Assembly (NCBI GenBank): GCA_963734545.1
Contig: CAVTHO010000007.1
Coordinates: 416,001 to 480,000, forward strand
Reading direction: 5' to 3'
DNA from: an uncultured Spirochaetota bacterium
Lineage (GTDB): Bacteria > Spirochaetota > Spirochaetia > SZUA-6 > Fen-1364
Length of the DNA: 64,000 bases
Part shown: piece after piece, positions 11,117 to 17,155 of the stretch
How the letters are laid out: every line of letters begins with the position of its first letter
Numbering within the stretch: the stretch's first letter is position 1
Translations under genes and position numbers: made by a program
The notes under the pieces: model-generated
Databases searched by the model: none
Told to the model about the DNA's origin: nothing
The model's input: the letters and a program-made list of their open reading frames with translations, nothing else

Positions 11117-12364
11117 ATGTCGGAACTCAATCCCTTCAAGATTGCCCAGAGCCAGCTCGATACCGCGGCAGCCACCCTCGGCCTGGACGACGCTACTCAC
11201 CAGCTCCTGCGCTGGCCCCAGCGCGAGCTGCGCGTCACCATCCCCGTGCGCATGGACGACGGGAAGGTGCGCGTGTTCAATGGCTACAGGGTGCAGTACA
11301 ATTCGGCCCGGGGCCCTGCAAAGGGGGGACTGCGCTGGCACCCGGACGAGACGATCGACACGGTGCGCGCTCTGGCGGCATGGATGACGTGGAAGACCGC
11401 GGTGGTGGATCTGCCGCTGGGGGGCGGCAAGGGCGGGGTGACCTGCAATCCAAAGGAATTGTCGTCAACCGAGAAGGAGCGGCTGGCACGGGCATACATC
11501 AGGGCAATCGGCCAGTTCATCGGCGACCGCAAAGACGTGCCTGCCCCGGATGTCTACACCACGCCTGAGATCATGGGATGGATGCTGGATGAGTACGAGA
11601 TCCTGGTCGGCCAGCACCAGCCAGGGGTGATCACGGGCAAGCCGTTGCCGCTGGGCGGGTCTGCGGGGCGCGACGATGCCACTGCGCGCGGCGGCATCTA
11701 CGTGACCCGTGAGGCCGGACGCGCCCTCGAGCTCGAGCTTACCGACCAGACGATGGCGATACAGGGCTTCGGCAACGCGGGGCAGCACGCCGCTCTCCTG
11801 GGGACGGAGCTTCTGGGAATGAAGCTCGTCGCCTGCTCCGACACACTGGGCGGGATCTACAACCCCCGAGGGATCGACGCCAGGGCCGTGGTCGACCACA
11901 AGAACAGGACCGGAAGCCTGGAGGGGCTGCCCGGGGTCGACCGGATCACCAATGAGCAGCTCCTGGAGTTGAACGTGCGTGTCCTTTTCCCCGCGGCGCT
12001 GGAAAACACGATTACCGATGCCAATGCGGCGAAGGTCAAGGCAAGGATCGTCTGCGAGCTTGCCAACGGACCGACCACTCCGGAGGCGGACAAGATACTC
12101 TTCGATAATGGCGTCTTCGTGCTTCCGGATTTCCTTGCCAACGCGGGTGGGGTGACGGTGTCATACTTCGAGCAGGTGCAGAACGCGTACAATTTCTACT
12201 GGGAGCTGGGCCTCGTCCACGAAAGGCTCGACGAAAAAATGACGAGGGCCTTTCTCGGCGTATACGAGATGCAGAAGCGTCAAAAAGTGAACATGCGGGA
12301 AGCGGCCTACCTCGTGTCGGTGAGCCGTGTCGCCGAAGCATGCCGGATGCGGGGGTGGGTCTGA
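11117..12364 (+). CDS. gdhA: Glu/Leu/Phe/Val-family dehydrogenase, probably glutamate dehydrogenase
   Basis: [55 protein letters not shown] before MSELNPF. Confidence 0.92.
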
Positions 12365-12415
12365 GGATCGATTTTGTAGGCCGGCAACAATATCCAAAAA
12401 AAACATAATCATGCA

Positions 12416-12444
12416 TTGACGTTTGCGGAAGAGTATGCTAACGT
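12416..12444 (+). promoter_or_regulatory. Putative sigma70 promoter (extended -10) of the redox operon
   Basis: TTGACG-N17-TAACGT with a TG at the extended -10 position and an upstream A-tract (12396-12403). Confidence 0.55.
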
Positions 12445-12511
12445 TGGCCCGCCGTTTCCGGCACGTTCTCACGCGAAGACTATAACGCCAGGAAAAACAG
12501 TGGAAGTCAGA

Positions 12512-12979
12512 ATGCACGAGACGATCGATGGGATCATCTCCCGTCATGGGACAGACCGCACCCGACTGGTCGAAATCCTTCACGACCTGCAGCATGAGTG
12601 CCGGTATCTGCCGGAGGACGCGCTGCGGACCGTTGCCAGGAAGCTCGCCATTCCACTCATAGAAGTCTACAAGGTCGCGACCTTCTACAAGGCGTTTACC
12701 CTCGAGCCGAGGGGCAGGCACCTGCTGACGCTCTGTACGGGCACCGCGTGCCACGTCAGAGGCTCACCCAAGCTGCTGGACGAGGTGCAGGGACTCTGCG
12801 GCATCGCTCCCGGGGAGACCACCCCTGACGGGAACCTCACCCTGGAAACCGTGAACTGCCTCGGTGCGTGCGCGCTGGGTCCTGTCGCTGTCCTGGACGA
12901 GACCTACCATCACCACATGAGCTGGGCCAGGCTGAAGACCCTTCTCGGCACGATCATCCACGGAAGGGCTCAAGCATGA
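12512..12979 (+). CDS. NuoE/HydC(BfuC)-like [2Fe-2S] subunit
   Basis: VATFYKAF, CTGTACHVRG, CLGACALGP. Confidence 0.9.
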   Translation: MHETIDGIISRHGTDRTRLVEILHDLQHECRYLPEDALRTVARKLAIPLIEVYKVATFYKAFTLEPRGRHLLTLCTGTACHVRGSPKLLDEVQGLCGIAPGETTPDGNLTLETVNCLGACALGPVAVLDETYHHHMSWARLKTLLGTIIHGRAQA

Positions 12980-14837: not shown

Positions 14838-14847
14838 GGGAGGACCC

Positions 14848-15546
14848 ATGGCAGAGCAGGTGACGCTGCGGATCGATGGCTCGCAGGTGCGGGCCCCCCA
14901 GGGTACGTCGGTGCTGGAAGCAGCCCTGGAATACGGGATCTGCATCCCTCACCTCTGCCACATGAAGGGAGTAACGCCGTCGGGAGTCTGCCGGCTGTGC
15001 ATCGTGGAGGTCGAGCGGCACGGGACCTCGCGGGTGACCTCCTCCTGCACGCTGGAAGCCGAGGAGGGGATGATCGTTCACGCGCACACGGAGCGCATCA
15101 TCCGCATCCGCAGGAACCTTGCCGAGCTTCTCGTTGCCGAGGCTCCCAACTCGCGGGCCATCCAGGACGTTGCAGCCCGGTGCGGCGTGAACGTCGTCCG
15201 TTATCCCTTCCGACATGAGAGCTGCGTCCTCTGCGGCAGGTGCGTGAGAGTCTGCAAAGAGGTCTGGCAGGCCGCAGCGCTGGGCACCGTGGGCCGTGGA
15301 GAACGGCTGCGGGTATCTCTTCCTTTTGGAAAGCGTCCGGATACGTGCAAGCGCTGCAACGCGTGCTTTACCGTCTGCCCTATGACCATTACTCCCTGCG
15401 ACGGGCCCATGCGCCCGGGCGAGGAGTACCTCTGCAACAAGTGCGCCTCCCAGCTCAGCATGAGCGCGGAATCTCCGGACAGCTGCGTCCGCTGCCGACT
15501 GGGCAAGGGCTTCGACTGCATCCGGCGGGTGCCGATCAACTACTAG
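14848..15546 (+). CDS. NuoG/HydA(BfuA)-like Fe-S subunit with no catalytic domain
   Basis: IPHLC..GVCRLC..SSC [2Fe-2S]; CVLCGRCVRVC and CKRCNACFTVCP; extra Cys-rich tail; only 232 aa, with no H-cluster or molybdopterin domain. Confidence 0.85.
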   Translation: MAEQVTLRIDGSQVRAPQGTSVLEAALEYGICIPHLCHMKGVTPSGVCRLCIVEVERHGTSRVTSSCTLEAEEGMIVHAHTERIIRIRRNLAELLVAEAPNSRAIQDVAARCGVNVVRYPFRHESCVLCGRCVRVCKEVWQAAALGTVGRGERLRVSLPFGKRPDTCKRCNACFTVCPMTITPCDGPMRPGEEYLCNKCASQLSMSAESPDSCVRCRLGKGFDCIRRVPINY

Positions 15547-15565
15547 CGCCAAAGGAGAAAAGACG

Positions 15566-17155
15566 ATGAACCTGCAAAGACCCAATGCCAACGACGTGAC
15601 ACAGACAGCCAACCGGTCCGAAAGCGTCGTGCCGGGCAGCGGGCTGTGCACCCGTTGTATTGACGGGTGCCGAGGCAACTGCGAGGTATTCCGTGCGTCG
15701 TTCCGCGGCCGCGAGGTGATCTACCCGGGTCCCTTTGGCGAGATAAGCGCAGGAGGGGACAAGAACTATCCCGTCGATTACTCCCACCTCAATATCCAGG
15801 GCTATGCGATGGGCGCCGCGGGTCTGCCCGATGGTGTGGAGCCGGGCCCGGATACTGCAATCTTCCCCGCCGTGGACACGCGGACAGAGTACGGATGGAG
15901 CTCCAAGGTGCCGATGCGGCTGCCGGTCTTCACCGGCGCGCTCGGGTCCACCGAGATTGCCCGCAGGAACTGGGAGCACTTTGCCATCGGCGCCGCCATC
16001 TCGGGCATCACCCTGGTGTGCGGAGAGAACGTGTGCGGCATCGACCCCGGCCTCGAGCTGAATGCAAATGGAAAGATCTCCAAATCGCCTGACATGGACC
16101 GCCGCATAGAAACCTACAAGAGGTTCCACGAAGGCTTTGGCGAGATCCTCGTGCAGATGAACGTGGAGGACACGCGGCTGGGCGTCGCGGAGTATGTCCG
16201 CGCAAAGCACGACCTGAAAACCATCGAGCTGAAGTGGGGTCAGGGGGCCAAATGCATCGGCGGTGAGATCAAGGTGAAAAGCCTCGAACGCGCGCGGGAG
16301 CTGAAGTCCCGCGGATATATCGTCACGCCGGACCCGACCCTCGAGCCCGTGGAAAAGGCATTCCGCGACGGCGCGATCAAGGAGTTCGAGCGGCACTCGC
16401 GCCTGGGGTTCGTGAGCGAGGAGGGCTTCTTCAAGGAGATCGAGCGGCTGCGCGGCCTCGGCTTCGCGCGCATCACCCTGAAAACCGGCGCGTACTCCAT
16501 GCGCGAGCTCGCCATGGCGCTGCGATACGCCTCCGAGGCCGGGATCGACCTGCTCACGATCGACGGCGCGCCCGGCGGAACCGGAATGAGCCCATGGAGA
16601 ATGATGGAGGAGTGGGGTGTCCCCACGTTCTACCTGCAGTCCCTCGCCTGGGAGTTCTGTGAAAAGCTGATGGCGCGCGGCCTTCGCGTTCCCGACATCG
16701 CCATCGCCGGAGGATTCTCCACGGAGGACCACATCTTCAAGGTGCTCGCCATGGGCGCCCCCTATGTGAAGGCGGTCTGCATGGGCCGGGCCATGATGAT
16801 CCCCGGAATGGTGGGCAAGAACATCTCCTATTGGCTCCAGGGCAATGACCTGCCCTCCACCGTGTCCCGTTTCGGCAGCTCACCGCAGGAGATCTTCGTC
16901 TGCTACGACGAGCTCGCGGAAAAGTACGGGGCCCGCATGAAAGAGATCCCTTTTGGCGCTATCGGAATCTACAGCTTTGCCCAGAAGCTTAAGGTAGGCC
17001 TCCAGCAGCTCATGGCAGGCACGCGGAACTTCCGACTCTCCACGATCAGCAGACGGGATCTCATGTGCCTGACCGAGGAGGCGGCGAAAATCTCCGGGCT
17101 GCCCTATATCATGGAAGCCTATCGCGCGGAGGCGGAGCAGATTCTCGCTCGCTGA
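15566..17155 (+). CDS. FMN-binding glutamate synthase family protein (stand-alone synthase domain)
   Basis: IELKWGQGAK.IGGE, IDGAPGGTGMSP, AGGF...K.LAMGA...MGR; N-terminal CTRCIDGCRGNC; no amidotransferase domain. Confidence 0.85.
   Translation: MNLQRPNANDVTQTANRSESVVPGSGLCTRCIDGCRGNCEVFRASFRGREVIYPGPFGEISAGGDKNYPVDYSHLNIQGYAMGAAGLPDGVEPGPDTAIFPAVDTRTEYGWSSKVPMRLPVFTGALGSTEIARRNWEHFAIGAAISGITLVCGENVCGIDPGLELNANGKISKSPDMDRRIETYKRFHEGFGEILVQMNVEDTRLGVAEYVRAKHDLKTIELKWGQGAKCIGGEIKVKSLERARELKSRGYIVTPDPTLEPVEKAFRDGAIKEFERHSRLGFVSEEGFFKEIERLRGLGFARITLKTGAYSMRELAMALRYASEAGIDLLTIDGAPGGTGMSPWRMMEEWGVPTFYLQSLAWEFCEKLMARGLRVPDIAIAGGFSTEDHIFKVLAMGAPYVKAVCMGRAMMIPGMVGKNISYWLQGNDLPSTVSRFGSSPQEIFVCYDELAEKYGARMKEIPFGAIGIYSFAQKLKVGLQQLMAGTRNFRLSTISRRDLMCLTEEAAKISGLPYIMEAYRAEAEQILAR

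Follow-up and report, generated by a model that had tools for sequence, protein, structure and literature searches.

Which reaction is served by a Bfu-type NADH/ferredoxin core that has no catalytic domain of its own and is encoded directly upstream of a protein resembling the synthase domain of glutamate synthase (GltS)? This question is raised by a gene cluster of an uncultured Spirochaetota bacterium (GTDB Spirochaetia; SZUA-6; Fen-1364), whose long-read assembly GCA_963734545.1 consists of 10 contigs (5.14 Mb) and is 89% complete. The analysed window is the whole stretch of 64,000 nucleotides (nt) from 416,001 to 480,000 of contig CAVTHO010000007.1, forward strand, and all positions are window-based. 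Between 11117 and 17155 it carries five co-oriented genes on the + strand, coding for a glutamate dehydrogenase (GDH), a NuoE-like protein (BfuC), a HydB/BfuB-like protein (BfuB), a protein of 232 amino acids (aa) similar to the N-terminal part of NuoG (BfuA), and a 529-aa PF01645 protein with a predicted flavin mononucleotide (FMN) site, here called X:

11117..12364, + strand: gdh, an extra glutamate dehydrogenase paralogue of 415 aa (Pfam ELFV_dehydrog 2.7e-73, ELFV_dehydrog_N 6.2e-55)
12416..12979, + strand: BfuC/HydC/NuoE-like [2Fe-2S] subunit (Pfam 2Fe-2S_thioredx 5.9e-46, residues 38-178; alternative start ATG 12512)
12973..14837, + strand: BfuB/HydB-like NADH-FMN subunit, in two frames (12973 to ~13548, then ~13545 to 14837)
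14848..15546, + strand: small BfuA of 232 aa (Pfam Fer2_4 1.6e-19, weak Fer4 matches)
15566..17155, + strand: X, a 529-aa FMN (alpha/beta)8-barrel protein (partial PF01645 match, 2.7e-15; N-terminal CxxCxxxCxxxC)

We judge it very likely that the four genes after gdh encode a genuine working enzyme of the Type-2 Bfu-like kind, in which a GltS-like iron-sulfur (Fe-S) flavoprotein of a nitrogen regulon would be the catalytic subunit. For the more specific proposal, that the BfuCBA trio forms an NADH/ferredoxin Bfu core feeding X and that X makes glutamate from 2-oxoglutarate and ammonia, we consider the chances to be about even. Gene assignments were checked against Pfam and NCBIfam, which bear out each of them. 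The first-pass annotation of this DNA had described NuoE-, NuoF- and NuoG-like genes tightly coupled to a synthase-like gene, with gdh just upstream, and the gene coordinates and gaps confirmed this arrangement; every sequence feature listed there was found in the DNA. The NuoE- and NuoF-like genes overlap by 7 nt, the NuoF-like gene is separated from bfuA by 10 nt and bfuA from X by 19 nt, while gdh ends 51 nt ahead of the NuoE-like gene, a distance that grows to 147 nt if the latter starts at ATG 12512. The gdh ATG is preceded at 6 nt by GGAGG.

Pfam placed a thioredoxin-like 2Fe-2S domain (2Fe-2S_thioredx) in the N part of BfuB, and Complex1_51K (3e-40), NADH_4Fe-4S (6.4e-29) and a Fer4 pair at residues 375-428 in its C part, the first two as expected for the NADH/FMN site and B1 [4Fe-4S] cluster of a NuoF core. 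The C-terminal 430 residues matched bifurcating BfuB chains of solved structures at E 1e-152 to 3e-175, the best solved relative being 7t2r_B of a NiFe-HydABCSL enzyme (3.1e-175) and the others 9bov_B, 7q4w_B, 9n5u_B (an NfnB chain), 9mqx_B (WorABCSL, 1.4e-165), 8a6t_B and 7p5h_B, with 7q4v, 8a6t and 7p5h as FeFe-HydABC entries, while non-bifurcating NuoF/FdsB relatives reached only 5e-93 or weaker. BfuB aligned to 7t2r_B through residue 594 of 597, with DEGTC, H-x5-C-x4-C and the C-terminal clusters present, so that the HydB/BfuB layout first read in this NuoF-like subunit was upheld both by the Pfam domains and residue by residue. The B2 cluster ligands of the NiFe enzyme are C438, C476 or Thr, H525, C531 and C536, and the main text of PMC9304861 treats C438, H525, C531 and C536 as diagnostic of bifurcating members, the His included. 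We found that C438, H525, C531 and C536 of 7t2r_B face identical residues in the window BfuB, and that H-x5-C-x4-C is kept in 68 of 70 BfuB orthologues. The N-terminal [2Fe-2S] cluster B5 and the C-terminal [4Fe-4S] clusters B3/B4 of BfuB are not present in non-bifurcating homologues (PMC9304861).

The other two subunits are consistent with this assignment. The 2Fe-2S_thioredx match of BfuC covers profile positions 2-142 of 145, as expected for the C1 [2Fe-2S] cluster, and the NCBIfam HoxE/NuoE models all scored under their cut-offs. BfuA carries a [2Fe-2S] domain, two 4-Cys ferredoxin-type motifs and a Cys-rich, Zn-finger-like tail, and neither its sequence nor Pfam revealed a His-Cys motif, an H-cluster, a pterin domain or a C-terminal catalytic domain. 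Its best solved relative was the 247-aa WorA (9mqx_A, 5.5e-31, residues 3-184), and by this best match it resembles Type-2 WorA, the identities of clusters A1/A2/A4 being read from Cys patterns only. A Type 2 BfuA is defined in PMC9304861 by its small size, by missing clusters A3 and A5 and by additional subunits that take care of the third substrate. Cys 32, 37, 48, 51, 67, 126, 129, 132, 136, 167, 170, 173, 177, 184, 196, 199, 213, 216 and 224 of BfuA were invariant in 31 of 31 orthologues, among them the six Cys of the 48-residue tail, CxxC-x13-CxxC included. The AlphaFold2 (AF2) model of BfuA (pLDDT 60.3) was too poor for reading the tail. According to PMC12318220, WorA docks the catalytic module through a Zn finger and a helix at its C-terminus; the paper also describes a Zn-finger motif in the A subunits of predicted Por- and Mbh-Bfu enzymes. 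By analogy with WorA, it is therefore plausible that the BfuA tail is a partner-docking element. The first-pass annotation was right about the tail and about the missing H-cluster and Mo/W domain; its description of the tail as unusual did not hold, in view of the WorA-type precedent (PMC12318220). Taken together, these comparisons support the trio as a genuine Bfu-type core that has no catalytic domain of its own.

The deposited bfuB gene is split at a homopolymer:

13544..13549, + strand: G6 run at the bfuB frame break, where 7 G restores the frame

With 7 G this site would read GLRGRGGAGFPT, as in all relatives by direct reading and by alignment. Orthologue alignments change frame at the G-run, and the two halves total ~621 aa, the orthologue median being 617 aa. 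One public short contig (run X1, 329 nt, depth 7.25, 11 mismatches, ~97% identical) spans the run with 7 G; it is the only contig bridging the run, that of run X3 stopping at 13549. Moreover, when the genome was probed with proteins from related loci, 59 candidate frame switches appeared in ~168 well-matched gene places, affecting carB, an enolase-like gene, the canonical gltB (>10 breaks) and gltD (three). Since a single break in the 6-kb cluster fits this genome-wide background, we treated it as an assembly error, which is most likely what it is, with a small residual chance of a real and very recent mutation. The first-pass annotation had raised a decaying operon, where a genuine frameshift would have put an end to the complex. 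The deposited sequence, with 6 G and two overlapping reading frames, speaks for decay, and the sole bridging contig comes from a ~97% identical relative that is not demonstrably this strain. However, that contig carries the frame-restoring 7 G, genes of an essential type such as carB and the enolase-like gene are among the 59 candidates, and apart from this break both bfuB halves and the remaining four genes have open, highly conserved reading frames. Decay was thus not borne out, and we consider it highly improbable. The canonical gltB/gltD genes lie at contig C8:607335-613309, and gene calls in this error-rich assembly need care. That gltBD is a true pseudogene was also considered and was not adopted, as the density of frame breaks is alike in other genes and decay is not separable from assembly error there.

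We then asked what X is. Its sole Pfam match was to PF01645, with residues 282-412 covering only profile positions 185-309 of 369 (E 2.7e-15), whereas canonical Glu_synthase domains from neighbouring loci match positions 3-369 at 4e-137. No NCBIfam model matched X, and phmmer against solved structures returned nothing at E <= 1. With a profile of the X family, the GltS large chain reached only E 0.13 among solved structures, and the top matches were de novo TIM barrels, which are uninformative. A profile-profile comparison (hhalign) of the X family with canonical GltB/GltB2 FMN domains from neighbouring loci gave a probability of 98.7% (E 2.2e-15) over 419 columns. Residues common to X and canonical GltB are Q197, K223, QGAK 226-229, G232-G233, K236-V237, P255, K306, GGTG 337-340, G382 and G397, and the FMN-binding/synthase-site motifs IKQ, IK, QGAK, GG, KV, VK and GGTG are retained. 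The N-terminal CxxCxxxCxxxC that had been noticed in the synthase-like protein proved to be a family feature, C28, C31, C35 and C39 being at least 90% conserved in 25 diverse family members.

X also departs from GltB in several respects. Invariant residues specific to its family include E221, F274, T331, E387, K392 and R487, and X has 19 extra residues inserted behind the TPDP (SPPP-like) motif, while its C-terminus bears a helical extension. Canonical glutamate synthase pairs its synthase domain with a PurF-type glutaminase, a central domain with an ammonia tunnel and a GXGXG domain (as described in part of PMC8097209). No amidotransferase, central or GXGXG domain is fused to X or encoded near it, and X neighbourhoods rarely hold them. 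The absence of a nearby glutamine amidotransferase gene, already remarked on in the first-pass annotation, extends to the whole contig, where no class-II amidotransferase domain was found; the only PF00310 matches of the genome belong to the canonical gltB on contig C8. We conclude that X represents a family of its own, sister to the synthase domain of GltS and outside it. The original label of a stand-alone glutamate synthase FMN domain did not hold, as the PF01645 match is partial and the [3Fe-4S] ligands are absent.

The AF2 model of X (pLDDT 82.9, pTM 0.85), confident everywhere but in the N-terminal part, has the form of an FMN-type (alpha/beta)8 barrel. Foldseek ranked glycolate oxidase first and Synechocystis GltS second. 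A match of X to PF01070 FMN_dh was under the cut-off (E 0.13, 11.7 bits, cut-off 24.9). Among the 25 family members, PF01645 matched 23, with a best E of 1.4e-17, and PF01070 matched 12 at E <= 1. The fold does not decide the substrate of X.

X belongs to a large family. Its best 120 database relatives are 78-92% identical, and a genome scan gave at least 599 matches in >597 species genomes. We examined 80 loci from species-level genomes, in which the X copies are 70-81% identical across many phyla; the genomes are labelled Omnitrophota, Planctomycetota, Chloroflexota/Dehalococcoidia, Thermodesulfobacteriota, Nitrospirota, Actinomycetota and Coriobacteriia, with one Methanosarcinales metagenome-assembled genome (MAG). 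No characterised family member was found in the literature. In P0253 (800 aa), a Fer4 pair, an FrhB_FdhB F420-type module and an X-like domain are joined in one protein, and the X-like match starts at X residue 26, two residues ahead of the first motif Cys. This Fer4-FrhB-X-like fusion occurs in two Asgard MAG loci, L173:4001-6214 and L174:4001-6403 (Promethearchaeota archaeon; Ca. Borrarchaeum weybense), and supports a modular electron input to X. Among proteins of 927-2645 aa, no fused relative of X was found. Tandem X-family genes were seen in Nitrospirota (L031:8001-11249, L058:410-3785 and L074:8001-11272), where the second copy is 56-58% identical to the window X; NrpR follows the pair in each of these loci, joined by P-II in L031 and L058.

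The genes around X in the 80 loci were then counted. NrpR was found in 23, a HisF-like protein in 16, P-II in 12, a GAF-ANTAR regulator and a PPDK_N-type 884-aa protein in 11 each, an ELFV dehydrogenase in 9, a GltD-like protein in 7, Amt and GlnA in 6 each, and a full-length GltB in 5; CarAB and CTP synthase were also recurrent. These neighbourhoods support the placement of X in nitrogen metabolism. NrpR itself was not found in this genome (89% complete). The PPDK_N protein (860-915 aa, with PPDK_N as its sole Pfam match) lies directly upstream of X in Dehalococcoidia-type loci (11/80, e.g. L026:1936-4590) and adjoins the ELFV dehydrogenase in the trio loci L097 (9452-12082) and L101. In other Dehalococcoidia loci (L049:5188-11072, and similarly L029, L037, L039 and L051), an operon-like gene row follows X, in the order ferredoxin, HisH-like class-I amidotransferase, Pyr_redox_2 flavoprotein, class-II amidotransferase, HisF-like barrel and Fer4-GltB2 protein. 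Such a row is a split glutamate synthase, in which a HisF-like gene takes the place expected of GXGXG.

An orthologous trio was found inside 7 of the 80 X-centred loci, and two further X loci (L040 and L045) hold a distant trio paralogue associated with pyruvate:ferredoxin oxidoreductase (POR), whose A subunit is 41-42% identical. We also assembled 80 trio-centred loci with a BfuA orthologue that is 59-70% identical, tail included, 72 of which have room to show X. The B gene lies directly upstream of A in all 80. X follows the trio immediately in 7 of the 72 and lies elsewhere in the locus in 12 more (19/72 in total). Where the trio locus itself lacked X, whole-genome searches of 50 such genomes located X elsewhere in 46; the four genomes without it have assemblies of 0.8-2.0 Mb. 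Among 201 genomes sampled from the class around a Dehalococcoidales chromosome, the trio occurred in 5 genomes, all 5 with X, while X occurred in 45 of the 201. In the window's own class, the trio was found in 1 of 151 genomes, namely this one, and X at >=70% identity in 3 of 151; the same-genus genome has neither the trio nor X at this identity. The asymmetry is clear: the trio goes with X, and X does not need the trio.

In a tree of 96 X sequences, presence of the trio requires at least 17 changes of state, and the window X nests in a well-supported clade of trio-adjacent X genes from Spirochaetota, Planctomycetota and Omnitrophota MAGs. Adjacency or proximity of trio and X recurs in Planctomycetota/Planctomycetia, Omnitrophota, Spirochaetaceae, Actinomycetes/Actinomycetota, Thermodesulfobacteriota or delta proteobacteria, and Dehalococcoidia/Chloroflexota. 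The link between synthase and trio drawn in the first-pass annotation was therefore upheld in part: X is directly downstream in only 7 of 72 loci and most X genomes lack the trio, but the adjacency spans several phyla and the trio predicts X. The five-gene block as a whole was not conserved, GDH being present in only 2 of the 80 trio loci (L097 and L101) and in 9 of the 80 X loci, within 8 kb of X.

Based on these results, we propose that catalysis would take place at X, which could draw its electrons from several interchangeable input modules: the trio would be one, the FrhB (F420-type) fusion another and free ferredoxin probably a third. The trio would then serve X as an optional module for input from NADH and ferredoxin. 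Both donors, NADH and reduced ferredoxin, would deliver their electrons to BfuBC, from where these would run through the clusters of BfuA and the N-terminal cluster of X to the FMN of X. In the second half-reaction of GltS, ammonia adds to 2-oxoglutarate and reduced FMN reduces the imine (as described in part of PMC8097209). This second half would be the most economical reaction to assign to X, and our best guess for its substrate is 2-oxoglutarate plus ammonia. The FMN of X would reduce the imine that 2-oxoglutarate forms with free ammonia, so that glutamate would arise with no need for glutamine or ATP, and the adjacent GDH paralogue would work on the same metabolites with NAD(P)H. The 2-oxoglutarate + NH4+/glutamate couple lies near -0.12 to -0.14 V, so that glutamate oxidation cannot drive the reduction of both NAD+ and ferredoxin. 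Bifurcation from glutamate oxidation is thus thermodynamically implausible on these redox potentials; only the confurcating, reductive direction would be feasible, and it would be strongly downhill.

Several observations weigh against this proposal. On the same potentials, reduction of 2-oxoglutarate plus ammonia is so far downhill from NADH and ferredoxin that a bifurcating-type core is not thermodynamically required, and B2 position 476 is Ala in the window BfuB and Thr in most orthologues. Others concern X itself and bear on an alternative in which trio and X are one enzyme with the same Bfu core, but X would reduce or oxidise another nitrogen-related substrate, such as a different 2-oxo or imino acid, or carry out a reductive deamination for nitrogen scavenging. 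An invariant GltB Arg (position 983, L012 numbering), which we take to be the 2-oxoglutarate-binding Arg992 of the Azospirillum enzyme, faces Glu245 in X, and the [3Fe-4S] ligands have no counterpart, the invariant GltB Cys 1134/1139 (L012 numbering) facing Leu/Ile. VIA-align ranked alpha-hydroxy-acid oxidases/IDI-2 first (Z 25-26.6, rmsd ~3.2 A, ~300 residues; for 1szf_B, Z 26.6 and 3.2 A over 297 aligned residues) and did not single out GltS, so that the fold is at least as close to those enzymes as to GltS. The partial coverage of PF01645, the PF01070 matches in 12 of 25 members and the invariant residues that the family has of its own point the same way. Moreover, 34 of 40 trio+X genomes, and this genome likewise, retain a canonical Glu_synthase-domain gene, which points to a role of X that is not redundant with it. 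X cannot therefore simply be equated with the GOGAT (glutamate synthase) of the cell, and the idea that X and the trio replace the canonical enzyme was rejected. Genome G025 is an exception: this complete chromosome carries trio and X but no further Glu_synthase-family gene scoring over 21 bits, which speaks against another substrate. So do the QGAK, KV and GGTG motifs of the GltS synthase site, the recurrent neighbours GDH, GltBD, GlnA, P-II and Amt, and PF01645 as by far the best family by sequence. We regard another substrate as a genuine possibility, although one with clearly less than even chances.

The remaining objections concern the trio, and they would fit an accidental adjacency, in which the trio works independently of X as an NADH:ferredoxin oxidoreductase or as a detached NADH module of an 11-subunit Nuo, POR or hydrogenase. 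In 53 of 72 loci the trio stands without X and could serve something else, and its commonest neighbour, the only conserved one, is a divergent LuxR/GerE-type regulator (54/80), NrpR being found in 9. An orthologous A subunit is encoded in only ~8 of 50 X genomes whose X locus lacks the trio, and the remaining A matches are paralogues, 34-48% identical and without the tail; and the co-occurrence counts come from MAG-rich, related genomes and are neither complete nor independent. Separate nuoEFG operons beside an 11-subunit Nuo are noted for Chloroflexi in part of PMC5736913, and this genome has several other HydB-like paralogues on contigs C5 and C8. However, the trio predicts X both in the 46 of 50 genomes and in 5 of 5 against the background of 45/201; their proximity recurs across phyla; the single trio genome among the 151 of the window's class is the one with this X type; and the A subunit, without a catalytic domain, still has an invariant docking-type tail. 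The Por-Bfu-like trios of L040/L045 are a different paralogue. An independent trio therefore seems unlikely. A further alternative, the second option of the first-pass annotation, opposes GDH and Bfu-X in a glutamate/2-oxoglutarate cycle, as an Nfn-like transhydrogenase between NADH+ferredoxin and NADPH. A dedicated GDH paralogue lies directly upstream in the same orientation, and an ELFV dehydrogenase recurs in the nine X loci and in L097 and L101. But GDH is found in no other of the 80 trio loci, and the gap of 51-147 nt between gdh and bfuC may hold its own promoter; ammonia would be released and re-fixed with zero net nitrogen gain, and X is accompanied by nitrogen regulators, not redox regulators. 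We consider the cycle very unlikely.

The LuxR/GerE-type regulator of the trio loci (e.g. L162:447-1427, - strand; L085-L164) has 326 aa, with a C-terminal helix-turn-helix and ~250 N-terminal residues without a Pfam match, and no close homologue of it was found in this genome.

The setting of the cluster was also examined. Upstream of gdh we identified two features:

10613..10641, + strand: sigma-70-like promoter, TTGACA-17-TATATT (11/12 consensus matches), directly 5' of the tRNA gene
10653..10725, + strand: tRNA-Met (CAT), Rfam RF00005 63.3 bits and an ARAGORN call, left border of gdh-bfuCBA-X

The promoter is the sole promoter-like site in 10400-18200, and as shuffled sequences average 1.4 such sites it is weak evidence alone. 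An Rfam scan of 10300-17400 found no riboswitch or leader, only the tRNA. Two GDH genes are present in this genome, the window copy and one on contig C4. The latter is the orthologue of a gene in the same-genus genome G150 (88% identity, shared flank), and the window GDH is 77% identical to both. Both ELFV domains of the window GDH are full length, and its NCBIfam GdhA_Arch score of 595.5 bits is under the cut-off of 750; its product belongs to the ELFV family, and we infer its exact specificity. In G150 the flanks are conserved at 73-82% nucleotide identity, and an integrase-like open reading frame (ORF) follows tRNA-Met in place of gdh-bfuCBA-X. The integrase label of this ORF (L167:1975-3474 (C351), 452 aa) is a reading of its N-terminal sequence. 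Because of this ORF after the tRNA, and of the window GDH as an extra paralogue, we conclude that gdh-bfuCBA-X is an addition beside the tRNA gene, and the tRNA-Met site may be an integration hot spot. The cluster joins a GDH of roughly the host's own kind to a trio and X whose nearest relatives are in other phyla, and GDH, rare next to the trio, is recurrent near X.

On the other side of the tRNA, a polar amino-acid ABC transporter with a permease and an SBP_bac_3 binding protein is encoded divergently from the tRNA/gdh side (8899-10505, - strand); the SBP_bac_3 protein has a glutamate-binding-type domain match. At 17119-20012, convergent and 3' of X, lie a UbiE-like methyltransferase (- strand), a type III polyketide synthase (DpgA-like, under the cut-off) and a further methyltransferase, a cluster with 82% nucleotide identity in G150 (L165, C245).

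One of the closest known systems is WorABCSL, the electron-bifurcating tungsten aldehyde oxidoreductase of Acetomicrobium mobile (9mqx; PMC12318220), which falls under Type 2 in the Bfu classification of Schut et al. 2022 (main text of PMC9304861). Both share the BfuBC core (9mqx_B at 1.4e-165) and a short BfuA that ends in a Cys motif and leaves catalysis to separate subunits. In WorABCSL the partner is the tungstopterin subunit WorL with the polyferredoxin WorS, whereas here it would be a single FMN barrel with an N-terminal 4-Cys motif; no WorS-like gene is present, and the BfuA tail did not align to WorA beyond residue 185. The likely third substrate here would have a much higher potential than aldehyde/acid, which would leave confurcation only. 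The NfnABC/Nfn-Bfu and [FeFe]-/[NiFe]-HydABC(SL) enzymes (9bov, 9n5u, 7q4v, 7p5h and 7t2r) are alike in BfuB/BfuC cofactor layout and sequence, but their long A subunits carry or dock NADPH-, H2- or formate-converting sites, unlike the 232-aa BfuA. X itself resembles the FMN/synthase domain of GltB (1ea0, 1ofd; including the archaeal split GltB2) in its (alpha/beta)8 FMN barrel, in the high profile probability and in its nitrogen neighbourhood. It differs in having no amidotransferase, central or GXGXG domain in cis or nearby, in its N-terminal 4-Cys motif in place of the [3Fe-4S] Cys, in its insertion and C-terminal extension, in the missing Arg and in the partial PF01645 match. A precedent in idea is FGltS(I) of methanogens, where a GltS-type catalytic subunit is joined to a non-canonical electron-input module. 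This F420H2-dependent glutamate synthase, an FrhB-like and a glutamate synthase subunit with an assumed glutamine-dependent reaction, was predicted in 2012 (Susanti and Mukhopadhyay, part of PMC3448663), and no characterisation of it was found in the literature. Its donor module is an F420H2 dehydrogenase and not an NADH/ferredoxin Bfu core.

The Bfu third-substrate types named in the main text of PMC9304861 are H2, formate, NADP, F420, aldehyde, benzoyl-CoA, CO, pyruvate, quinone and peroxide, and 'glutamate', 'GltB' and 'GOGAT' do not occur in that text. Full-text literature searches turned up no Bfu/NuoEF module with a GltS-like subunit, although the supplement of PMC9304861 (1,558 BfuB clusters) could list the clade as unassigned, and the trio+X system seems not to have been published before. 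A Bfu member linked to an amino acid or to ammonium would carry electron-bifurcation-type chemistry into nitrogen assimilation. With few genes and standard predicted cofactors, the case is directly testable. More tentatively, and with rather less than even confidence, we suggest that X-type enzymes may be a widespread and so far unrecognised third route of ammonium assimilation in anaerobes, relatives of glutamate synthase that lack the glutaminase and reductively aminate 2-oxoglutarate with free ammonia and low-potential electrons from interchangeable inputs. Where the Bfu module is present, NADH and reduced ferredoxin would be confurcated into this step, and the added driving force would give an ammonium affinity like that of the glutamine synthetase/glutamate synthase (GS/GOGAT) pathway without ATP. 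In this organism the module would have been acquired horizontally, together with a GDH paralogue, beside a tRNA gene. The X family is abundant (>597 species genomes), 70-92% identical across phyla and placed in nitrogen regulons, and if it is true that X makes glutamate from free ammonia by means of low-potential electrons, the textbook account of how energy-limited anaerobes assimilate ammonium, GDH versus the ATP-consuming GS/GOGAT, would need a third entry.

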